The position numbers and the translations under genes were made by a program. The notes under the pieces were generated by a model that made no database searches, was not told the DNA's origin, and worked only from the letters and a program-made list of their open reading frames with translations. Shown here in pieces: positions 1,026 to 10,078 of a stretch of 64,000 nt of DNA (the stretch's first letter is position 1; each line of letters opens with the position of its first letter). The DNA is from Alphaproteobacteria bacterium. GTDB lineage: Bacteria > Pseudomonadota > Alphaproteobacteria > UBA1280 > UBA6503. Location of the stretch: assembly GCA_021774615.1 (NCBI GenBank), contig JAJFIW010000003.1:7867-71866 (forward strand), given 5' to 3'.

Positions 1026-1739
1026 ATGGGACAAGAAAATACACAACAAGTAGAACTACCAGACTATATCCTACGCCGCACCGACCGCAGGCGTAGTGTC
1101 GCCATTTTGGTGTTGGCCGATGGCAGCCTAGAGGTACGTGCGCCACAACGAGTTAGCCAACGTTTTATCGAGGAATTTATCGTAGAGCGGATGGACTGGA
1201 TCGAGCGCAAAAAAAACGAGCGCAAAAAACGCCCCCAAACAGCTGCCCGCACATGGCAAACTGGCGATATATTTTATTTAACAGGGCAACCCTACCAGCT
1301 AATAGTTAAACCTAGTAGCCGTGTGTCGGTAGAGGTTAGCGACGGTGCTTTGGTTCTTTACCAAACCGACCCTACCAACACCGAACGAGTACGCCATAAC
1401 CTAATGCAATGGTACAAAGAACAAGCCGAGCAAGAATTTAAACCTCGCCTTGCAAGGTTTGCCAACGGCATGGAAGAGAAAATCCCCGAGCTTATCATCA
1501 GCAATGCTAAGCAACGCTGGGGGAGCTGTCAGGCTAAAAAACGGATTATCCGTTTGTCGGTACGGCTGTTGATGGCATCAAAAGAAGTGCAAGACTACGT
1601 AATTATCCACGAGCTAGCCCACCTAAAGCATATGGACCACTCGTCCGACTTTTGGGGCAGGGTCGCCCAGTTCTGCAAAAACTGGAAACAGCTAGAAGAA
1701 ACCCTAGGCCACCATGCGCAGTTGTGGCGGTTTGATTAA
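1026..1739 (+). CDS. YgjP-like (DUF45) / M48-family metal-dependent hydrolase
   Basis: 237-aa ORF with a C-terminal HELAHLKHMDHS (HExxH zinc motif) typical of the DUF45/SprT-like family. An RBS-like GGGTATGGG lies upstream. Confidence 0.7.
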   Translation: MGQENTQQVELPDYILRRTDRRRSVAILVLADGSLEVRAPQRVSQRFIEEFIVERMDWIERKKNERKKRPQTAARTWQTGDIFYLTGQPYQLIVKPSSRVSVEVSDGALVLYQTDPTNTERVRHNLMQWYKEQAEQEFKPRLARFANGMEEKIPELIISNAKQRWGSCQAKKRIIRLSVRLLMASKEVQDYVIIHELAHLKHMDHSSDFWGRVAQFCKNWKQLEETLGHHAQLWRFD

Positions 1740-3169
1740 TTAACTGCTGTTGCTAATTTTTTCGAGCTTCCCGCAAGCATACTTACACCATAAAAAACAA
1801 CCAGCCCCAACAACAAAGCAGGGATTGGTGAGCCAAAGTTATATGGTATCTCGAAAAGATTAAACTCGTGCGCTAGTTGGAACGAGAAGCCTGTTAACAT
1901 CCCAGAAATTGCGCCAGATGTGGTTGCTTTGTCCCAATACAGTGGGCCAATCAGAGGAATAAGCAGTAGTGTTGCAAGACCAACTCCTTTACTTGCTAAC
2001 ATAATAATTGGGCCTTGGCTTTCAGGGAGTAGAGCAAGAACTGTAATAACAGCTACCAACACAATTACTAAATAACGCCCTAAGAGCTTACCTTTATGGG
2101 GGTTAAGTTTATTTGTCATGGCAGGGCGGATGATATCGCGGGTAAATACCGACGAAACCGTTAAAAGTTGTGAATCTGTAGTAGACATCCCTGCTGCAAA
2201 AGTTGTTAAGACTAATAATGGTACTGCCCATGGTAAGTAGGTTGCAAATAGGGTTGGTACAAGCTTGTCCGAGTCCTCTAACCCTGTAACAAAGCCAATG
2301 CTTAATACCCCAATAATAACAGTCGCAACTGCAATTATAGAAACAATAAAAGCTTGGTAATAGATCGATTGGGCAAAGTCTTTTGCAGTTTTTGCCATAT
2401 AGGTGCGTTGCCACATATGGGGTAGTAGCAAAAAGCCTAAAATCCAAGAAAAACCAATAGTTATCGGAAAGCCCATGTTTTGGCTATCCATAACAAATAA
2501 GTCTGGTCGTGCTGCAACCGAGTTTTGTAACCCTGTTATTAGCCCGCCTGATGCATAAATGGCAATCCCTGCAGAAATAATAACAACAGCTAAAAATAAA
2601 GCACCTTGGATCCAGTCGGTTAAAATGATGGCGCGCATCCCGCCCAAAAAAACATAAAATGCAGCAACAGCTCCTGCTGTGATTACTGCCATTTCATAGG
2701 AGATAATACTATTGGTAGCACCCTCAACAACTTTACCAATAGCAATAACTTGGATAAGCACATAAGGCACTAAAGATACTATCGAGATAATTGCTACCAT
2801 ATAGCCAATTGGCTTATTTTTATAAAAATCTACCAGAAGTTCCGCAGGGGTAATGTAGTTGTTCTGACTCGAGATAAGCCATAATTTGCGCCCAATAAAC
2901 CATAAAAGAAAGAGCCCAGCTAAAGTAAAGAAAATAACCCCAAAACCCCAAGCAACACCTTTAGAATAGTAAAACCCTGGCGACCCTAAAAAGGCAAATG
3001 TGCTAAACCATGTAGCAAAAGTTGTTACAGCAAGGTGCTTAGAAGAAAGCGTTCTGCTTGCTAAAAAATAGTCGGTAACAGTATCTAAACTGCTTTTATT
3101 AGCACGAAAACCTAGGTAAACGATTAATAATATATAAGCTACTATCGTTGCGATGACTGCTGTAATCAT
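1736..3169 (-). CDS. sodium:solute symporter (SSS) family transporter
   Basis: 477-aa polytopic membrane protein with about 12-13 predicted helices and the SSS-family pattern. The DUF4212-like small subunit lies immediately upstream. Confidence 0.8.
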   Translation of the reverse strand: MITAVIATIVAYILLIVYLGFRANKSSLDTVTDYFLASRTLSSKHLAVTTFATWFSTFAFLGSPGFYYSKGVAWGFGVIFFTLAGLFLLWFIGRKLWLISSQNNYITPAELLVDFYKNKPIGYMVAIISIVSLVPYVLIQVIAIGKVVEGATNSIISYEMAVITAGAVAAFYVFLGGMRAIILTDWIQGALFLAVVIISAGIAIYASGGLITGLQNSVAARPDLFVMDSQNMGFPITIGFSWILGFLLLPHMWQRTYMAKTAKDFAQSIYYQAFIVSIIAVATVIIGVLSIGFVTGLEDSDKLVPTLFATYLPWAVPLLVLTTFAAGMSTTDSQLLTVSSVFTRDIIRPAMTNKLNPHKGKLLGRYLVIVLVAVITVLALLPESQGPIIMLASKGVGLATLLLIPLIGPLYWDKATTSGAISGMLTGFSFQLAHEFNLFEIPYNFGSPIPALLLGLVVFYGVSMLAGSSKKLATAVN

Positions 3170-3174
3170 GTTTC

Positions 3175-3456
3175 TTACCTTATAGAACTATTAGAGTTGT
3201 CTTGTGCATCGAACTTTTCTGCCCATGGTTTAAAAAGTATTTTATGAGCATAAACAGCAAGAGCCAGAAAAGAAAAAATAAAGCCAAAAATTAAATAAAT
3301 GGTTAGAGGTATTCCTGCAATTTCTTGCCCCTCTGCACCTAAAACACCAACCATTGTTAGTACCATTACAGCAACATATAGTGCAAAATAATAGGCGACC
3401 TTTTTGTTGTTGCAAGCTAGTTCTTTGTCTTGTGATAAAATTTGATCTTTAATCAT
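3175..3456 (-). CDS. small two-helix membrane protein, DUF4212-like SSS-transporter accessory subunit
   Basis: 93 aa with two hydrophobic helices, translationally coupled to the SSS gene (6-nt gap). This pairing is typical of DUF4212 with an SSS permease. Confidence 0.5.
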   Translation of the reverse strand: MIKDQILSQDKELACNNKKVAYYFALYVAVMVLTMVGVLGAEGQEIAGIPLTIYLIFGFIFSFLALAVYAHKILFKPWAEKFDAQDNSNSSIR

Positions 3457-3642
3457 GATTAGCCCTAATTTGGTCGTGATATATGATATTTCGAGCTTAA
3501 TATAGACTATATTATTGTTTTCTCAAGGTATAAATAATGCTGCTGTATTAGTTAAAATTTGCTTTGCATCTGAACCCATCCTTGGATACACTCGGAAATT
3601 GTAATAGTAGATAACGCAATGTTCCGAGACCGACAATAATAA

Positions 3643-4071
3643 ATGATTTATAAACTCCGCTTAGTGTTTGACTATCCTCTTGCATTACAAGAGGTTTCTC
3701 GTTGGTCTAAGCTACGGTTAGTGATGGTGCACCATTTGCTGGCAGTTGGGTTTTTTTTGCACCCATATACTTTAGCTGCAACAGCTTTGTTGGCATCATT
3801 CTTGCTTGTATTTGAGAGTATAAAAGCCGAACCATACACAGCAGACAATATTCGTTTTGGTTGGCAACGTATTATACTGGCTATGGCCGTAAATTTTGCT
3901 TTTATGGGGCTACAAGCTAGTGGCGCTGCTGAAGTTTCGCACTGGTGGTGGGTATCTTTAGTGGGTATTACAGTTAGCTTGTACGATGGTTATTTAGTAT
4001 GGCATGGGATAACAGGTATTTTTTATATAAACATAAAGCGGAAGAAGGCTTATGTCGGCACGACTGATTAA
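3643..4071 (+). CDS. hypothetical integral membrane protein
   Basis: 142-aa ORF with three to four hydrophobic helices, overlapping the start of the downstream EAL gene by 20 nt. No recognisable motif. Confidence 0.35.
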   Translation: MIYKLRLVFDYPLALQEVSRWSKLRLVMVHHLLAVGFFLHPYTLAATALLASFLLVFESIKAEPYTADNIRFGWQRIILAMAVNFAFMGLQASGAAEVSHWWWVSLVGITVSLYDGYLVWHGITGIFYINIKRKKAYVGTTD

Positions 4072-6082
4072 TTTATTCTGGCTTGTTGTGCTTCTTGCAG
4101 GGGCATTGGTAGCTGGCGGTTGGCTGGCCGAAAAACTTATCCACCTTGAAGACAGGAATACAGACTACTGGCAATCACAGCTACAAGAAGCTAGTAAAGA
4201 GCAATCTAGTGTTATTAATAAATGGTTGGTAGACCAAATTAATATCTCTAAAGAAATTGCCAAAGACGATAGAATTTATAATTTCCTCAAAAAAGCTAAT
4301 GATAGCGGGATGCTACCCCCTAAGGCTGAAGCAGTACGAGCTATACATGAATATGCAAAGCTAAAATATGGCCTTAACCATACATATTTATTTTCTAAAG
4401 ACGGTAGGCTGCTTTTATTCCAAGAAAATGCTAGAGAACTACCGTTAAAAATCAGAAAAACTCTAGCGGCTGCATACCAAACAAACTTGGATAGGTATTC
4501 ATTTATTTCCTTGGTTGATCATAAGAAGTGGTTGTTTGTTTCGTCTCGAGTTAAGCAAGACAATAAAAACCTTGGCTATGTAGTCTATATGATCGAGGTT
4601 AGCGCCGCTGCTAATATTCTAAAAGATAGCTCTTTTCGTTGGAGATATGTTGATTTTAACCTCGCACGCCGCAATGGCGATGATGGTGTTTTTATTATTA
4701 ATTGGGGTGAAAATAAAACTAGTGCCTTTTTATATAAATTATCCCAGATAGAAATACCTCTGTTTAATGGTAAAGCTGAAGAATTTGGTCTTTATAAATT
4801 ACCAAATGGCCAGGAACGGTTTATGTTTACCTCGATTATACCAGAATTTCCATTTTGGCAGCATGTTGGCTCTGTCCAGCTTGATGTTGCATATGAGCAA
4901 GTAAACAAAACACGTAATTTTTATTTGCTTAGTGCAGCTGTAGTTTTATTGTTCTTACTTACATTAGTAGCAAGGATTATGGGGCGGATTATCAACCCTG
5001 TAGCGCCTTTATTCCCTAGTTATATAACTAAAATTACTGGGAACAAAACCAAGCATACACCAGCCCCACAAAAGCAACCACAGAGTATGAAACCACAAGA
5101 ATTATTCAAAAAAATACGTGTTGCATTTACTGGTAGTAAGTCTCGGACTCTTTCAGAAGAAGAAAAAGAACTAATAAAGAAAAGAAACCAGCCACCGCAA
5201 CAAGAGCCTGCTACTAAAACAAAGCCAGCTGCTAAAGTTGAACCGGTACAAATTGCTAAAGAAGAACCAGCAGTAGCTACAAAGGTAGAAGAGCCTATAA
5301 TTGCACAGACCGAAGAAGAAAAAGCAGAAGCTGCCGAAAGAGAACAAATAAAACAAATCCATAGATGTATCGAAAATGAGCGTTTCCGTCTTTACTTCCA
5401 ATCCATTCTTGAAACAAAGAACAAGAAAAAGGTAATGTTCGAAACCTTATTGCGCTTGGTTTCAGATAATGGTGATTTGATGCAACCTAACGAATTCATC
5501 CCCTTGGCATTTAAACACAATTTTATTGACCAAATTGACGACATGGTAATTATTGCCTCATTAAGAAGGCATATGGAAATATTGTCTCAGGGTAAAGATA
5601 TTATGCTTAGCATAAACTTGTCTTATGGCGCATTTAGTAGCGTAAACTTTAAAAATACTTTTAAAGAAGGGCTCGATAGCGGGAAAATTCGTCCTGATTT
5701 AATTAACTTCGAGCTAAGCTCTAAAGAAATAATAGAAGATGATGCCGCCATGGGTTTTGTAAGAGACATGCAAGCAAAAGGGGCTAGGTTCTCTGTGGAT
5801 TATTTTGGTAATAATAAGCAAACAGTAGAAGCGGCCAAAAAACTAAAGTTTAATTACATGAAAATTAATGCTCTTAGGTTTGATGGCCTAGACCGAGGCT
5901 TGCCCGAGCAAATAGAGAAATTTCAGGAGATTATCCTTGCAGGCCAAGAAAACAGCCTACCAATGATAGTAGAAAAAATAGAAAATAAAGCAGTGCTAGA
6001 TTTGTGCGAGAAGCTTAAAGTACCTTATGTGCAAGGTTTCTATTTAGACGAACCATCACCTAAATTAACGCTAGGTTGGTAA
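4052..6082 (+). CDS. membrane-anchored EAL-domain protein with partly degenerate motifs: two TM helices, a periplasmic domain, a K/E/P/A-rich linker and an EAL domain
   Basis: An N-terminal TM helix, a periplasmic domain of about 260 aa, a second TM helix, a low-complexity linker (about residues 330-450) and a C-terminal EAL fold. EAL-domain motifs are altered: YQPI is YFQSI here, EALLR is ETLLR, DDFGTGYSS is DYFGNN (second Asp lost), and the Glu of EGVE and the QG are retained. Confidence 0.75.
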   Translation: MSARLINLFWLVVLLAGALVAGGWLAEKLIHLEDRNTDYWQSQLQEASKEQSSVINKWLVDQINISKEIAKDDRIYNFLKKANDSGMLPPKAEAVRAIHEYAKLKYGLNHTYLFSKDGRLLLFQENARELPLKIRKTLAAAYQTNLDRYSFISLVDHKKWLFVSSRVKQDNKNLGYVVYMIEVSAAANILKDSSFRWRYVDFNLARRNGDDGVFIINWGENKTSAFLYKLSQIEIPLFNGKAEEFGLYKLPNGQERFMFTSIIPEFPFWQHVGSVQLDVAYEQVNKTRNFYLLSAAVVLLFLLTLVARIMGRIINPVAPLFPSYITKITGNKTKHTPAPQKQPQSMKPQELFKKIRVAFTGSKSRTLSEEEKELIKKRNQPPQQEPATKTKPAAKVEPVQIAKEEPAVATKVEEPIIAQTEEEKAEAAEREQIKQIHRCIENERFRLYFQSILETKNKKKVMFETLLRLVSDNGDLMQPNEFIPLAFKHNFIDQIDDMVIIASLRRHMEILSQGKDIMLSINLSYGAFSSVNFKNTFKEGLDSGKIRPDLINFELSSKEIIEDDAAMGFVRDMQAKGARFSVDYFGNNKQTVEAAKKLKFNYMKINALRFDGLDRGLPEQIEKFQEIILAGQENSLPMIVEKIENKAVLDLCEKLKVPYVQGFYLDEPSPKLTLGW

Positions 6083-6170
6083 AACTTAATAAATGTTGTA
6101 GAATATCTGTGTATAGCTGTTCCTTTAGGCGGAACTTGGCGACAACTTAAGATAAGGAAAGAGATTTTCT

Positions 6171-6440
6171 ATGGCAGAAGGTAAAAACACAGACGCTTCT
6201 AGTAAGGGCTCAGGGGTAAAGTCGCGCCGTAAAACACCACCAAAGTCTGACGCAGAGCTATACCAGCTGCCTGAATCTATTTTTACTAAATTTATCCGAG
6301 CCGAGCGCCGCCAAGACGAGCGAGAGCGCCTCGAAGACATCCAAGAGCAAAAGAAAGACTGGCAAAAAACACTAACTTTCTATGCTGTTGTTATGGTTCT
6401 GCTAGTTCTTTTGTCTATGTGGGGTCTTGTATGGAAGTGA
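6171..6440 (+). CDS. small tail-anchored protein, paralog 1
   Basis: 89 aa with a basic N-terminus, conserved ELYQLPES..FIRAERRQDE..R.....QEQK..W block and a single C-terminal TM helix. Paralogous to the next ORF; a GGAAAGAG RBS lies upstream. Confidence 0.5.
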   Translation: MAEGKNTDASSKGSGVKSRRKTPPKSDAELYQLPESIFTKFIRAERRQDERERLEDIQEQKKDWQKTLTFYAVVMVLLVLLSMWGLVWK

Positions 6441-6451
6441 GAATTTCTTAG

Positions 6452-6697
6452 ATGACAAAAAATAAAAAAACGACAAGCGCACGTCGTAAGTCTGGTACAA
6501 AGTCAGAGGCTGAGCTATACAAACTACCTAAATCCACCGTTGACGAATTCATCAAATCCGAACGCCGCCACGACGAACTAGACCGCATGCGCGAAGTCCA
6601 AGAGCAGAAACAGACTTGGCGTAGGACTATGTTTTTATGTGGACTTTTAAATCTTATTTTCCTGATATTAGCATACATTGGGTGGATGAATGGTTGA
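6452..6697 (+). CDS. small tail-anchored protein, paralog 2
   Basis: 81 aa sharing the ELYKLPKS..FIKSERRHDE..R.....QEQK..W block and C-terminal TM helix with 6171-6440. Stop overlaps the start of the GGDEF gene. Confidence 0.5.
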   Translation: MTKNKKTTSARRKSGTKSEAELYKLPKSTVDEFIKSERRHDELDRMREVQEQKQTWRRTMFLCGLLNLIFLILAYIGWMNG

Positions 6698-8366
6698 ACC
6701 ACGTAAACACTATATTGGCTGGGCACAGGCATTCTTTAGTGTGATGGTGTTATGGGGTATAAGTAATGTATTTATGAGTTACTCCACTCAAGTTCTAGAA
6801 GTCCATAAAATTATTTTTGCCTGTACAACTTTCACAAGTTGTTCTTTTTGTCTTCTTTTCTATGCAGGTAGCGGTAAGCTCTCTAAGGAAACCCTTCGTA
6901 GTATAGACACTTGGGCTTATGGCATAATTATGCTTATAAATTACTTTATTACACTTAATTTATTTAGTGTTGTTACAGCTACAGAAGCGAGTCTTTTACA
7001 AAGGTTTAGTGTTATTTTTAGCTTATTTAGTAGCTGGGTATTTCTTATGCGTAAGCCCAATAAATGGCAGCTGATTGGAGTCTTTGCAATTGCAATTGGT
7101 TTGCTTGTTATTTGCGATGCAATACCAGAAGAAAAAGCAATGACAGTTTATATTCTAATGTTCTTGGCAGGGGTATTTCAATCACTTCGCTTATTTGTTG
7201 CAGAATTTCATCGTCCTCATCAAAAAGCTGTAGAGACGAATGATATAAAATCGAGATGTCGTGTCATCGGATATATAATGTTTGTAATTACCTTAATTTT
7301 TGTGGGCATTACAGCAGGAGTAGCTTTTTTACAGTCCTCTGTTGTACCAGAGAATCGAATTCTGTTTCTTATCCAACCAGAAAATTTCTTTCACATGCCA
7401 AGTATTATAGCAGGTATGGTTATGGGAATATTTATTTACACACCTATTCGCTATCTTGAATTTGCGAGTACACATATAATTAAAACAGAGAACTATCTTA
7501 CTATTACATCTTTCTCATTCTTCTCTACACTCTTTTGGGAGTGGGCTACAATGCCCTTAACAGGTTTATCCTTAAAAGAGTTGTCTAATACGGATATCAT
7601 AGCTGGTGTCATAATTACAGCTGGGGCTCTGATTATGGCTCTAAGTAAGCTTAGGGAAATCAAGAAAGAGGATAATAGCTTTGGTAGCTATATCTACCTA
7701 GAAACCCAAAACCTCACAGCCGTAGACGACAGCCGAGAAATAACGGCGAATACACTGGAGCATTTCGGGGGTGATGTTGTAAAGGCAGCAGGGGCGTTGG
7801 ACGTACCACCTAGTGTTATTACTGCATTTTTAGACGATAAGGAAAAGGTACTAGCCTTTAAAAACCTGCCCGATATTGCCCGTATTTACCGCCATAAAGT
7901 AGCAGGTTGTGACGCTCTGACAGGGTTAATAAACCGAGCAGGGTTTATGATTACCCTGCGCAATGCGCCTGCAGAATTTAAAATTTTTAGTATTTTGTAC
8001 CTAGACCTAGATAAATTTAAACCCGTTAACGATACCCACGGCCACGATGCTGGTGACGAAGTTTTAAAAGCTGTCGCCAACCGTCTAGAAGAAGCATGCC
8101 CGACAGATGCGATTATAACTAGGATGGGAGGTGATGAATATTGCATAATACTCCCTAATTCTGACAAGAAAATGGCTGATAGTAAAGCAAACTATTTGCA
8201 ACAAGTCATAGCTAAACCATTCAAAATCAGAGGTATTGCAGAGAAAATAGAGATTGGCGCCTCAATTGGCATTGCAACCTACCCTAAAGACGGCAAAAAC
8301 GTAGAAAAACTCCTCACAATAGCTGATGGCAGCATGTACGGGGTTAAACATTTAAAAGATAATTAA
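6690..8366 (+). CDS. integral-membrane diguanylate cyclase (GGDEF domain, GGDEY variant)
   Basis: About 8 N-terminal TM helices followed by a C-terminal GGDEF fold: LDLDKFKPVNDTHGHDAGDEVL ... RMGGDEYCIIL. No RxxD I-site upstream of the GGDEY motif. Confidence 0.8.
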   Translation: MVEPRKHYIGWAQAFFSVMVLWGISNVFMSYSTQVLEVHKIIFACTTFTSCSFCLLFYAGSGKLSKETLRSIDTWAYGIIMLINYFITLNLFSVVTATEASLLQRFSVIFSLFSSWVFLMRKPNKWQLIGVFAIAIGLLVICDAIPEEKAMTVYILMFLAGVFQSLRLFVAEFHRPHQKAVETNDIKSRCRVIGYIMFVITLIFVGITAGVAFLQSSVVPENRILFLIQPENFFHMPSIIAGMVMGIFIYTPIRYLEFASTHIIKTENYLTITSFSFFSTLFWEWATMPLTGLSLKELSNTDIIAGVIITAGALIMALSKLREIKKEDNSFGSYIYLETQNLTAVDDSREITANTLEHFGGDVVKAAGALDVPPSVITAFLDDKEKVLAFKNLPDIARIYRHKVAGCDALTGLINRAGFMITLRNAPAEFKIFSILYLDLDKFKPVNDTHGHDAGDEVLKAVANRLEEACPTDAIITRMGGDEYCIILPNSDKKMADSKANYLQQVIAKPFKIRGIAEKIEIGASIGIATYPKDGKNVEKLLTIADGSMYGVKHLKDN

Positions 8367-8505
8367 GTGCAAAGTTAAACTACTATAACGTAACGTTACA
8401 TCTTTTAACAAAATGTTATAACAATTCGTTGTATTATAAAAATTGCCATAAAATACAACTACCCTAACCTATTGTTTTTATTTATAAAAACTAACTGGTA
8501 AAAGT

Positions 8506-8521
8506 TGGCACTATGCTTGCA
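8506..8521 (+). promoter_or_regulatory. sigma54 (-24/-12) promoter TGGCAC-N5-TTGCA
   Basis: TTGGCACTATGCTTGCA is an exact match to the RpoN consensus GG-N10-GC spacing. No ORF follows; a Rho-independent terminator lies about 65 nt downstream. Confidence 0.45.
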
Positions 8522-8584
8522 CCTATACTAACTATGTGACCTTGCTATTATTTTAGTGAAGTACCCGACACACACAAAACTTTT

Positions 8585-8612
8585 GAGCCGCAATTAGCGG
8601 CTCTTTTTTTTG
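8585..8612 (+). terminator. Rho-independent terminator
   Basis: GAGCCGCAATTAGCGGCTC stem-loop followed by TTTTTTTT. Confidence 0.7.
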
Positions 8613-8705
8613 GTTTTTAATCCACCTGCGGTTAGGCAAAAGCCTAACTCTTGGTGCTGCGTTGGGCAGACTGTCGACAACCTCTCGTCTAGCGGCGACT
8701 CGGGA
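8605..8705 (+). repeat. about 100-nt structured repeat, copy B; directly follows the terminator T-run
   Basis: TTTTTAATCCACCTGCGGTTAGGCAAAAGCCTAACTCTTGGTGCTGCGTTGGGCAGACTGTCGACAACCTCTCGTCTAGCGGCGACTCGGGATG. Inverted relative to copy A at 505-612. Confidence 0.5.
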
Positions 8706-8710
8706 TGTCT

Positions 8711-10078
8711 CTAGGCTTGCCATTTCTTAAGCTTACGGTCAAGCGCTGGGCGAGAGATATTTAGAATATCGCAGGTTTTGCCTTTATGGTTACCTGTTGC
8801 TTCTAGAACGTTTAAGATATGCGCTTTTTCTACTTCTTCTAAAGAAATAAGCTGTGTTGAGGCTGTAGGGGCTAGGTCAAGGTCTGTTGTGGCTGCGGCT
8901 GTTGGTAGGTTAGGGTTAATGTCTTCAACGTCTATGTATGCTTGCTGTGCGTGGGCTGCGGCTCTGGTTAAAACGTTCTCTAGCTCGCGGATATTGCCTG
9001 TCCAAGGTTGTGCTTTTAGTTGTGTCATACCATCTAAGGTAATCCCCTTAATGGTTTTACCTAGGCTGTGGTTAATCCGCATTAGTAAGTTGCTTACAAT
9101 CGCGGTGAAGTCAGACATCCGCTCTTTTAAAGTTGGGATGTAAATATCAATAACATCAAGGCGGTAAAATAAATCTTCACGGAACTTGCCCGCCGCTACC
9201 ATTTTGCGTAAATCCCGATGAGTCGCAGCAATAATCCTAGCGTTAGTAGTTAATGTTTTATTGCTACCTACACGCTCAAAGGTTTGCTCTTGTAATACTC
9301 GTAGTAATTTTGCTTGTAAATGTGGCGACATTTCGCCAATTTCGTCAAGGAACAAAGTGCCATTTTCAGCAATCTCGAAACGCCCTTGTTTGGCTTGGTC
9401 AGCACCTGTAAAAGCACCTTTTTCATGCCCAAAAAGTTCGCTCTCGAGCAATGTATCAACAATTGAGGCACAGTTTACAGCAACAAAAGGGCCTTTATGT
9501 TCGCCATGGCTATGAATGGCTTTTGCCACTAGCTCTTTACCTGTTCCTGATGCACCTTGGATAAGTACATTGGCAGTATTTTGGGTGGCAATAGCAATTT
9601 TTTTGCATACTTCAATCATCTCGGCGCTGCTGCCAGTAATTTCAGGGGTAGTATCTTCTTGGGAAGGCGCAGTATTTACCGTAGCTTTTTTAGTGTCAGC
9701 TTTAAGAGCATGGTGAATAATAGTATCAAGCTTTTGTAGGTCTATAGGCTTATGGACATAATCAAAAGCACCTGTTTTCATGGCAGTGATGACTAATTTC
9801 ATATCGTGAAAACCAGTAACCATTACAACTGGCCGCTGGTTGTTGTCTTCCAAGAGCCATTGCAATAATTTTAGACCATTTGTATCGGGCAAGTGTTGGT
9901 CAAGGAGAACAAGCTTACAAGCATTTGTATCTAAAAACTTTTTGGCTTCAGCGCCTGTGTGTGCAATGTGGGTTGTAAGGCCTATATCATCAATGTGTAG
10001 GCTTAGCATTTCAGACAAAGATTCATCATCGTCAATAATTAGAATGTCGCAGGTACTCATTATTGTGGTTGCTCCCAC
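8711..10078 (-). CDS. sigma54-dependent response regulator, NtrC/NtrX family (REC + AAA+ + Fis-type HTH)
   Basis: N-terminal receiver with ILIIDDDES and a phospho-acceptor Asp, an AAA+ domain with GASGTGKE and the ESELFGHEKGAFTGA (GAFTGA) motif, and a C-terminal HTH. Confidence 0.85.
   Translation of the reverse strand: MGATTIMSTCDILIIDDDESLSEMLSLHIDDIGLTTHIAHTGAEAKKFLDTNACKLVLLDQHLPDTNGLKLLQWLLEDNNQRPVVMVTGFHDMKLVITAMKTGAFDYVHKPIDLQKLDTIIHHALKADTKKATVNTAPSQEDTTPEITGSSAEMIEVCKKIAIATQNTANVLIQGASGTGKELVAKAIHSHGEHKGPFVAVNCASIVDTLLESELFGHEKGAFTGADQAKQGRFEIAENGTLFLDEIGEMSPHLQAKLLRVLQEQTFERVGSNKTLTTNARIIAATHRDLRKMVAAGKFREDLFYRLDVIDIYIPTLKERMSDFTAIVSNLLMRINHSLGKTIKGITLDGMTQLKAQPWTGNIRELENVLTRAAAHAQQAYIDVEDINPNLPTAAATTDLDLAPTASTQLISLEEVEKAHILNVLEATGNHKGKTCDILNISRPALDRKLKKWQA

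Follow-up and report, generated by a model that had tools for sequence, protein, structure and literature searches.

A candidate small tail-anchored partner of a DMT/EamA-GGDEF diguanylate cyclase, encoded beside an apparently separate EAL sensor unit in an Alphaproteobacteria genome

Does a run of tightly packed genes encoding an EAL sensor, two very small membrane proteins and a diguanylate cyclase constitute a single c-di-GMP module, or do separate units lie side by side? The question was raised by a 64,000-nucleotide stretch from an Alphaproteobacteria bacterium (GenBank assembly GCA_021774615.1, contig JAJFIW010000003.1), referred to here as the window. A preliminary description had reported four co-directional, tightly spaced ORFs, all of which are present on the + strand. 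That count was incomplete, as a fifth co-directional gene, encoding a 142-aa protein, shares its last 20 nt with the beginning of the EAL gene. The features of the region are as follows.

3643-4071, +, gene for a 142-aa polytopic membrane protein (ORF)
4052-6082, +, gene for the 676-aa EAL sensor protein (ORF)
4121-4924, +, periplasmic dCache-like sensor domain, EAL protein residues 24-291 (AlphaFold2 model and Foldseek)
4994-5347, +, predicted disordered, low-complexity cytoplasmic linker, EAL protein residues 315-432 (composition and pLDDT)
5354-6055, +, EAL domain, residues 435-668 (Pfam and alignments)
6171-6440, +, s1, gene for the diverged small tail-anchored copy, 89 aa (ORF)
6452-6697, +, s2, gene for the canonical small tail-anchored copy, 81 aa (ORF)
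6690-8366, +, cyclase gene, 558 aa (ORF)
6690-7679, +, predicted ten-helix DMT/EamA-fold membrane module, cyclase residues 1-330 (fold)
7680-7907, +, predicted cytoplasmic helical linker domain, cyclase residues 331-406 (likeness to a Fis-type helix-turn-helix)
7908-8366, +, GGDEF domain of the cyclase (Pfam, TIGR00254 and alignments)

The EAL gene and s1 are separated by 88 nt and s1 and s2 by 11 nt, and s2 overlaps the cyclase gene by 8 nt. Our reading, to which as a whole we assign a probability of roughly 0.6, is that the region holds two independent conserved units juxtaposed by a lineage-specific rearrangement. One unit (A) would consist of the 142-aa polytopic membrane protein and the EAL sensor protein, and the other (B) of the small membrane protein and the DMT/EamA-GGDEF cyclase. 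Structures were predicted protein by protein, as monomers only.

The EAL protein carries two hydrophobic helices, at residues 5-23 (TM1) and 292-310 (within TM2, which spans about 292-314), in keeping with the two-TM periplasmic-sensor topology first proposed for it. Its periplasmic part was modelled by AlphaFold2 with a pLDDT of about 80-93, and Foldseek matched this domain to the ligand-binding domains of PctA and Mlp24 with a TM-score of 0.62-0.69 on target. As modelled, the domain is dCache-like in fold; Pfam Cache was matched in 0/13 members of the EAL family. The K/E/P/A-rich low-complexity linker of the preliminary description was also recovered at residues 315-432, where K/E/P/A/Q/T account for 69% of positions and pLDDT values below 50 (326-368 and 379-417) predict disorder. 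Twelve full-length homologues, 41-55% identical to the window protein, were aligned with it (n=13), and among them the linker varies in length and sequence except for an R-x-L-S-E-E-E-K patch. Homologues of the 142-aa protein (54-60% identity) are encoded directly upstream of an EAL homologue in five loci (L005-L009). This polytopic protein, of 132-142 aa across the family and with no Pfam or NCBIfam match, is a conserved partner encoded upstream of the EAL gene.

The EAL domain itself was matched by Pfam at residues 435-668 (E 8.7e-38), and its residues were compared one by one with those of FimX and of the active phosphodiesterase RbdA. Both motifs on which degeneracy had been argued, FETLLRL and SVDYFGNN, are present. 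The change of EAL to ETL had been counted as a lost residue; the catalytic Glu is kept in ETL, so nothing is lost there. Degeneracy does hold for the DD pair, whose second Asp is replaced by Tyr or Phe in 13/13 members, for the second, loop-6-stabilising Glu of E-x-x-E (Ser, Asn or Pro in the family) and for loop 6, which departs from DFG(T/A)GYSS in 13/13 members. It does not hold for the other signature residues. Without exception, the 13 homologues keep both the Glu and the Arg of ExLxR, together with the Asn, Lys and Gln, the first Glu, the first Asp and the catalytic-base Glu (EKIE). The earlier suggestion of c-di-GMP binding rather than hydrolysis thus agrees with the key residues that are gone and sits less well with retention of the catalytic base and most metal ligands. 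Since most signature residues are invariant, loss of activity is likely but not certain, and the protein probably acts as a receptor for c-di-GMP or as a weak phosphodiesterase. Its EAL domain would most likely bind c-di-GMP as a receptor, with hydrolysis at most weak or conditional. It is possible, though somewhat unlikely, that the protein is instead an active ligand-gated phosphodiesterase which merely opposes the neighbouring cyclase in this genome. The invariant residues favour this, as does a published classification that reserves the label inactive for EAL domains without the EGVE catalytic base and treats all others as uncertain (PMC12900916). Against it, three features are missing throughout the family (the second DD Asp, the Glu that stabilises loop 6 and the loop-6 motif itself), and of the solved structures the one closest in sequence is the EAL domain of FimX, which is non-catalytic (E 1.1e-16).

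The two small proteins had been described as paralogous and tail-anchored, and both points were borne out. They share 41% identity over 68 residues (E 9e-22, far above chance), and each has a single C-terminal hydrophobic helix, at residues 69-87 of s1 and 59-77 of s2. Neither matches a Pfam or NCBIfam model, so that the profile search agreed with the earlier remark that they belong to no obvious family. Among 1.84 billion proteins, 66 cluster representatives of the family were found; apart from a 1054-aa protein that was matched spuriously, all of them are standalone proteins of 40-110 aa. An alignment of 22 sequences revealed invariant R20, E45, R47, Q60 and G85, a conserved cytoplasmic helix of the form FI-x-x-ERR-x-DELDRL-x-EV-x-x-QK-x-x-W, and a conserved C-x-x-L-N ... 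L-A-x-x-G pattern in the membrane helix. The window's s2 is the top match to the family profile (3.8e-41). In s1, DERER stands where the family has DELDR and the membrane helix lacks the C-x-x-L-N motif; a tandem second copy occurs only in the window genome and in locus L001, which comes from the same organism. Thus, s1 is a diverged tandem duplicate limited to this genome. The preliminary description had left room for the small ORFs being unconserved; they are kept across loci at a steady length of about 72-94 aa, and the closest pairs give dN/dS of 0.10-0.25. Judged from these alignments, the small proteins are a real family under purifying selection. This undescribed family is the novel part of the finding, and its hosts are uncultured marine Proteobacteria.

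The cyclase was matched by Pfam GGDEF at residues 407-557 (E 3.8e-34) and by TIGR00254, and its GGDEF domain was aligned to the MorA and T. maritima cyclases. As first described, the active site reads RMGGDEY and there is no I-site, the RxxD motif being absent from the window cyclase and from all 104 family members examined (0/104). At the GGDEF site these members carry GGDEF (64), GGDEY (35), AGDEF (4) or GCDEF (1), and the GGDEF/GGDEY domain of the window cyclase is, on its motifs, catalytically intact. The eight TM helices originally counted proved too few, as the modelled membrane module is a complete ten-helix DMT/EamA transporter fold. The linker domain that follows, with predicted helices at 342-358, 363-370, 374-382 and 393-405, resembles a three-helix, Fis-type HTH; Pfam HTH_8 matched it in 5/25 family members (best E 2.5e-6) and did not match the window protein.

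The association between small protein and cyclase was assessed from both sides. When GTDB genomes were searched with the membrane-module alignment alone, 19 cyclase loci were obtained, and a small-protein homologue lay immediately upstream of the cyclase in 17 of them. When metagenomes were searched with the ERRxDEL motif, 16 loci were obtained, every one with an EamA-GGDEF gene directly downstream of the small gene (16/16), as is also the case in L002 and L004. Even distant cyclases (28-37% identity) are preceded by an ORF of 67-84 aa whose product is basic at the N-terminus and carries a TM helix at the C-terminus. Overlap of stop and start is usual, the distances including -4 (ATGA), -8, -11, -14, -19 and +1, and in the window GGGTGG lies just 5' of the cyclase ATG. 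The small gene is absent from cyclase loci L010 and L024, and in L025 a 100-aa ORF, whose N-terminal hydrophobic stretch followed by Cys looks lipoprotein-like by eye, separates it from the cyclase; the partner therefore seems dispensable in some paralogues. Co-divergence of the small proteins with their cyclases was moderate (r 0.32-0.55), and a test for association of the membrane-helix Asn with cyclase columns was confounded by phylogeny.

This two-way genomic linkage, together with coupled translation and purifying selection, indicates that, most likely, the small protein is a single-pass partner dedicated to the cyclase. Anchored at its C-terminus, with a cytoplasmic N-terminus and its translation coupled to that of the cyclase, it would pack its membrane helix, with the conserved Cys, Asn and Gly, against the DMT module, and its charged cytoplasmic helix would probably contact the linker or the GGDEF domain. 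Such contact would set the dimerisation-dependent activity of the cyclase, and the DMT module would serve as the ligand sensor, a transporter turned receptor. An unlikely alternative is that the small protein serves a functional DMT transporter as accessory subunit, like AcrZ, KdpF or CydX, and acts on folding, stability or transport and not on the cyclase. Coupled translation fits this, as do the conserved polar and small residues within the membrane helix. However, it is the charged cytoplasmic helix of about 35 residues, not the membrane helix, that is most conserved, which points to a cytoplasmic contact, and the family is seen only beside GGDEF-fused DMT proteins. The two proposals differ only in the activity that is modulated.

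In the preliminary description the four genes made up one c-di-GMP module, and the small proteins were possible adaptors between EAL protein and cyclase; as such they would tether the cyclase and the receptor-like protein together for local signalling. We consider this improbable. The genes are indeed co-directional and tightly spaced, with the sole strong terminator (8585-8603) 3' of the cyclase gene; s1, the diverged extra copy, is placed precisely between the EAL gene and s2 and exists only here, so that a new role could be envisaged; and GcbC and LapD of Pseudomonas fluorescens provide a known example of direct contact between cyclase and receptor. The co-occurrence data tell against it, however. 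The four-gene arrangement was found in no other genome (L001 being of the same organism), about 40 other loci have the small-protein/cyclase pair without an EAL gene, and three related genomes have the EAL gene without the pair, the gene being flanked there by the 142-aa homologue and by a different, unrelated 125-aa 4-TM protein. As the EAL gene never adjoins the pair elsewhere, the module and the adaptor role are unsupported; across its family, the small protein is partnered with the cyclase. Synteny indicates that the region is rearranged in this genome, and a 96-nt inverted repeat lies on both sides of the block. That the small ORFs are leader ORFs whose translation sets the cyclase level, the peptides being functionless, is highly improbable, for while overlapping stop and start is the classic layout for coupled translation, conservation is at the protein level with synonymous sites near saturation and the dN/dS given above, charged residues are invariant, the membrane-helix pattern and the length are maintained, and the ORF persists where its sequence has diverged past profile detection.

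Two independent units remain our preferred reading, and each can be set beside known systems. The EAL protein is similar to the degenerate EAL receptors FimX and LapD in its incomplete catalytic set and intact nucleotide-contacting residues, and to LapD in having an inner-membrane anchor and a periplasmic domain. It differs from both in having no GGDEF, HAMP or S-helix, in a dCache-like sensor joined to the EAL domain by a disordered linker of about 120 residues, and in its conserved 132-142-aa polytopic membrane partner; it also keeps more catalytic residues than FimX, in which the metal-binding Asn aligns as His. Small single-pass proteins that bind larger membrane proteins include MgrB and SafA (with PhoQ), AcrZ (with AcrB), KdpF and CydX. 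The window's small proteins likewise have fewer than 100 aa and one membrane helix and are encoded beside their partner, as those often are with coupled translation, but they show no sequence kinship with them (no Pfam or NCBIfam match), have a long conserved charged cytoplasmic helix, and their putative partner is a diguanylate cyclase. Control of a GGDEF enzyme by a separate small protein is seen in SiaC-SiaD (PDB 7e6g) and YfiR-YfiN/TpbB; SiaC, however, is soluble and cytoplasmic and YfiR periplasmic, and neither is tail-anchored or related in sequence. In Sd-Amt1 (Amt-HAMP-GGDEF; PDB 8qj3) a transporter module drives the cyclase as an ammonium receptor (PMC11152129). The window cyclase resembles it in joining an entire transporter-fold membrane module to a cytoplasmic GGDEF domain, suggesting a transporter repurposed as a receptor. 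It differs in its DMT/EamA fold, in a Fis-type HTH-like three-helix connector in place of HAMP, in lacking an I-site and in the apparently dedicated small tail-anchored partner encoded upstream.

The preliminary description had recognised four genes in the same direction on the + strand, and the ORF list confirmed all four as real, but a fifth gene had been overlooked. Its product is a polytopic membrane protein of 142 aa, and its 3' end runs 20 nt into the start of the gene for the EAL protein, a membrane sensor with a partly degenerate EAL domain. The features of the region are as follows.

Features of the region under study (window coordinates)
3643-4071: gene for the 142-aa polytopic membrane protein
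4052-6082, + strand: gene for the EAL protein, 676 aa
6171-6440, + strand: gene for s1, a small tail-anchored protein of 89 aa
6452-6697, + strand: gene for s2, its paralogue of 81 aa
6690-8366, + strand: gene for the cyclase, an EamA/DMT-GGDEF protein of 558 aa
7680-7907: domain linking the DMT module to the GGDEF domain (cyclase residues 331-406), Fis-type helix-turn-helix-like
8506-8612, + strand: candidate sigma-54-dependent small RNA element, promoter and terminator
8711-10078, - strand: gene for an NtrC-type response regulator

On the 5' side of this region, a 93-aa membrane protein (3175-3456, - strand) is encoded directly upstream of a PanF/PutP-type sodium/solute symporter (1736-3169, - strand), with 5 nt between them. 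The stretch 1736-3456 is thus another pairing of a small-membrane-protein gene with a transporter gene, and Pfam and NCBIfam assigned no family to the 93-aa protein.

The small-protein gene and the EamA-GGDEF gene were found to be linked in both directions. A cyclase-side scan of one genome per GTDB species, using an alignment of the membrane module only as query, recovered 19 loci, all from MAGs of uncultured marine Proteobacteria, and in 17 of these a homologue of the small protein was encoded directly 5' of the cyclase. The remaining two (L010 and L024) carried the cyclase without the small gene; L024 has a different 127-aa ORF about 300 nt upstream of the cyclase. When metagenomes were scanned from the side of the small protein with the motif ERRxDEL, an EamA-GGDEF gene lay directly 3' of the small gene at every locus (16/16). 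Distant cyclases (28-37% identity) were likewise preceded by an ORF, here of 67-84 aa, whose product is basic at its N-terminus and carries a TM helix at its C-terminus. Translation of the two genes is coupled: the distances from the stop of the small gene to the start of the cyclase include -4, -8, -11, -14, -19 and +1, and in the window the end of s2 overlaps the cyclase start by 8 nt, with GGGTGG immediately 5' of the cyclase ATG. The sole strong intrinsic terminator of the region, at 8585-8603, follows the cyclase gene.

Several genomes harbour more than one such locus, the genome scan giving four in MAG UBA12223 (L012, L023, L025 and L026), and KhW_metabat.34 and MarineProteo1_Bin2 have three each. 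Pairs may also lie close together, and one of the 17 loci carries an insertion.

Arrangements at other pair loci (locus coordinates)
L046, 352-4213: small ORF and EamA-GGDEF gene in two tandem copies
L021, 3-1834 and 4323-4785: two pairs inside 4.8 kb
L025, 4496-6740: variant in which an additional 100-aa ORF separates the small gene from the cyclase

The product of the 100-aa ORF looks lipoprotein-like by eye, with Cys following a hydrophobic stretch at its N-terminus. A mirror-tree comparison of small-protein and cyclase identities over 28 pairs gave r of only 0.32-0.55, which does not suffice to demonstrate co-evolution over and above common ancestry. Similarly, the cyclase columns that best followed the membrane-helix Asn of the small protein (49, 82, 163, 273 and others) agreed with it in 23 of 26 pairs, an association confounded because these columns track one subclade. 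We favour the reading that the small protein would be a physical, single-pass partner of the cyclase. A rival reading, in which it is purely an accessory subunit of a transporter, is less probable.

Over 68 residues s1 and s2 share 41% identity (E 9e-22), and hydropathy gave each a single C-terminal TM helix, so that both the paralogy and the topology proposed for them earlier hold. The lone hydrophobic helix stops 2-4 residues from the C-terminus in s1 and s2 (2-6 across the family), it is immediately preceded by Arg/Lys, and the N-terminal part is basic; the proteins are accordingly classed by prediction as tail-anchored, with a single extreme C-terminal helix and a cytoplasmic N-terminal domain. 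A word-indexed search with the small protein returned three relatives only, and an exhaustive profile search of 1.84 billion representatives returned 66, which were standalone proteins of 40-110 aa bar one spurious match to a 1054-aa protein. That they belong to no known family was upheld by profile searches, since Pfam gave no family match and the signals from Pfam and NCBIfam were sub-threshold noise such as 2TM, CrgA and DUF7539, as they were for the 142-aa protein. In an alignment of 22 sequences, a basic RRK patch is followed by a (D/E)LYK motif, a charged helix with the consensus FI-x-KERR-x-DELDRL-x-EV-x-x-QK-x-x-W, and a membrane helix in which the pattern C-x-x-L-N ... L-A-x-x-G is conserved. 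Invariant positions of the charged helix correspond to E45 and R47 of s1, and the membrane-helix Gly to its G85.

The closest small-protein pairs are under purifying selection, with dN/dS of 0.10-0.25 and synonymous sites near saturation, so that selection acts on the small peptide itself. These values argue against the small ORF being a leader ORF whose peptide has no function, and this alternative is disfavoured. Of the two small proteins, s2 is the canonical copy. In s1, DERER replaces DELDR and the C-x-x-L-N pattern is missing, and a tandem second copy was found only in the window and in L001, which comes from the same organism. In this genome s1 may have acquired a new target, which could be the EAL receptor encoded next to it.

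In the cyclase, the Pfam matches are EamA (residues 14-141) and GGDEF (residues 407-557; PF00990, 118.2 bits; TIGR00254, 120.8 bits), and NCBIfam gave nothing more specific. The AlphaFold2 model, built on 104 homologues, has a pLDDT of 94.2 and consists of ten membrane helices, a helical domain (342-405) and the GGDEF domain; the EamA profile and the ten-helix (5+5) fold place the protein in the DMT superfamily. The GGDEF domain carries the usual motifs GG(D/E)EF, D-x-L-T-G-L-x-N-R and D-x-D-x-F-K-x-x-N-D. Across the 104 homologues R478, D482 and E483 are invariant, and G480 and G481 are kept in 100 and 103. The active-site motif reads GGDEF in 64, GGDEY in 35, AGDEF in four and GCDEF in one, its final residue being Phe in 69 and Tyr in 35, and because GGDEY is carried by so many (35/104) we regard the Tyr form, on this alignment, as a normal variant within the family. 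The I-site, which the preliminary description had found wanting, is indeed missing: PTDA stands at its position in the window cyclase, and RxxD, five residues before GG(D/E)EF, occurs in 0/104 family members. By prediction, the cyclase is active and escapes inhibition by its product.

Pfam HTH_8 (Fis-type HTH) matched the linker that follows the DMT module in five of 25 relatives (best E 2.5e-6), with no match in the window protein at E <= 0.1, and residues 342-405 form a small helical bundle in the predicted model. This domain may be a mere helical connector or a dimerisation element. A DNA-binding-type domain within a membrane cyclase is unusual.

The four genes had been taken for one c-di-GMP module, in which the small proteins could act as adaptors between the EAL protein and the cyclase. 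The underlying observation was largely right, and this interpretation was unsupported by the co-occurrence check. The EAL gene was absent near the pair at 19 genome, 16 metagenome and 5 further loci (about 40 in total), and neither small protein nor cyclase was present at the EAL loci L005-L009 of three related genomes (0/5). The four-gene arrangement is thus unconserved, and the adaptor model is disfavoured. In the three related genomes, the order is exonuclease, BolA, sigma-54 response regulator, a gap, a 132-aa membrane protein, the EAL protein, a 125-aa 4-TM protein, RNase P RNA and YgjP, so that the EAL protein is flanked there by two small polytopic membrane proteins. The 125-aa protein was considered as a homologue of the small proteins and rejected as an unrelated 4-TM protein. 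Its gene is absent from the 64-kb window.

Conserved gene for the 125-aa four-helix membrane protein, following the EAL gene
L005, 12101-12478
L008, 12180-12557

Compared with these genomes, the block in the window is rearranged with respect to the response regulator. The stretch from the RNase P RNA (608-957, - strand) through the cyclase gene is bracketed by the two arms, 85% identical, of a 96-nt inverted repeat (514-609, + strand, and 8614-8709, - strand); a simple inversion between the repeats fails on its own to give the gene order of the relatives. Because the EAL gene and the pair are never together elsewhere, the 125-aa gene is absent and the block is rearranged and repeat-flanked, comparative gene order indicates that they are neighbours through a lineage-specific rearrangement. 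The conserved units are two, one of the 142-aa protein with the EAL protein and one of the small protein with the cyclase. This is also a caution, as close spacing in one direction within one genome had pointed to a four-gene module that the comparative data did not bear out.

The EAL protein matched PF00563 at residues 435-668 (E 8.7e-38; 130.4 bits against a gathering cutoff of 31.3), as did all 13 members of its family, 12 full-length homologues having been found. Hydropathy placed membrane helices at residues 5-23 and 292-310. The periplasmic part between them is confident in an AlphaFold2 model built on 13 homologues, where a long helix leads into two alpha/beta modules, a secondary structure compatible with a dCache (double Cache) sensor; Foldseek matched it to the ligand-binding domains of PctA and Mlp24, which are of dCache type (E ~1e-8, TM-score 0.62-0.69), and Pfam Cache models matched 0/13 family members. 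Residues 315-432 are 69% K/E/P/A/Q/T, are variable in length and sequence across the 13-member alignment, and are predicted to be disordered.

Catalytic residues were assigned by aligning the domain with that of FimX (inactive), with RbdA (an active phosphodiesterase, PDB 8pps) and with the 13-member family, across which FETLLRL, INLS, NFEL, SVD, MK, EK(I/V)E and QGFY are invariant. The earlier view that ETL marks a lost EAL residue was mistaken, as FETLLRL keeps the Glu and Arg of E-x-L-x-R. The metal-binding Asn, the first Glu of E-x-x-E, the first Asp of DD, the Lys, the catalytic-base Glu (EGVE; here EKIE) and the Gln are also kept in 13/13. The claim of degeneracy nevertheless stands for three elements. 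The second Asp of the DD(F/Y)G pair, a metal ligand, is Tyr in the window protein and Tyr/Phe in 13/13 members; the loop-6-stabilising second Glu of E-x-x-E is Ser, with ELSS replacing E-x-T-E (Asn/Pro in relatives); and the loop-6 motif DFG(T/A)GYSS, which reads YFGNNKQT in the window protein, is absent from every member (roles of the latter two from PMC12900916). By the classification of that paper, the domain is neither clearly active nor clearly dead. FimX is its top sequence match among solved structures, and because of this match and the intermediate residue set we favour a c-di-GMP receptor or a weak phosphodiesterase.

Beyond the cyclase, the only perfect sigma-54 promoter in the window (TGGCAC-N5-TTGCA) lies about 65 nt 5' of the strong terminator with its run of eight T. 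Promoter, core (AGTACCCGA...ACAC) and terminator hairpin, the latter with compensatory changes, are kept in three related genomes, always just 3' of, and convergent with, the gene for the sigma-54-dependent NtrC-type response regulator.

The same promoter/terminator element in relatives
L005, ~9222-9328, - strand
L007, ~9230-9341, - strand
L008, ~9198-9309, - strand

We regard the element as a candidate sigma-54-dependent small RNA (~75 nt) whose logic recalls Qrr/LuxO. Rfam gave no match to it, no known RNA families were found within 3300-8900, and the window contains no target site complementary to it.

Of the many membrane-bound c-di-GMP enzymes, few have a known means of control, and small membrane proteins are systematically under-annotated. 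The EAL domain, GGDEF domain, DMT fold and dCache-like sensor are all of known kinds. The small tail-anchored family, its strict coupling to DMT-GGDEF cyclases and the paralogous multiplication of the pair are undescribed in the libraries and literature searched, where nothing relevant was found on EamA-GGDEF fusions or on small membrane proteins acting on cyclases. A clean, testable pair is thereby defined, a 70-90-aa tail-anchored family strictly linked to cyclases with a complete DMT-fold sensor. Our most far-reaching reading, to which we give a probability of roughly 0.4, is that the small proteins are obligate single-pass subunits of a new family, able to turn a DMT-fold sensor cyclase on or off, and would be the first small integral membrane proteins to control c-di-GMP synthesis. 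The pair has multiplied as a unit, and genomes of an uncultured lineage of marine Proteobacteria carry three to five or more paralogous pairs; on this reading they would have a battery of transporter-like receptors, specific for different ligands and each served by a matched mini-partner. In the favoured partner reading, the membrane helix of the small protein would pack on the DMT module, and its charged helix would contact the linker or the GGDEF domain, tuning dimerisation-dependent activity, with the DMT module acting as a ligand sensor. If the small protein is a subunit or regulator, small-protein control would reach second-messenger synthesis, beyond sensor kinases and transporters; there would also be a new class of transporter-derived receptor. 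For a DMT module as sensor the precedent is the Sd-Amt1 ammonium receptor (PMC11152129), whose cyclase is driven by an Amt transporter module, and for control of a cyclase by a protein it is SiaC-SiaD (PDB 7e6g).
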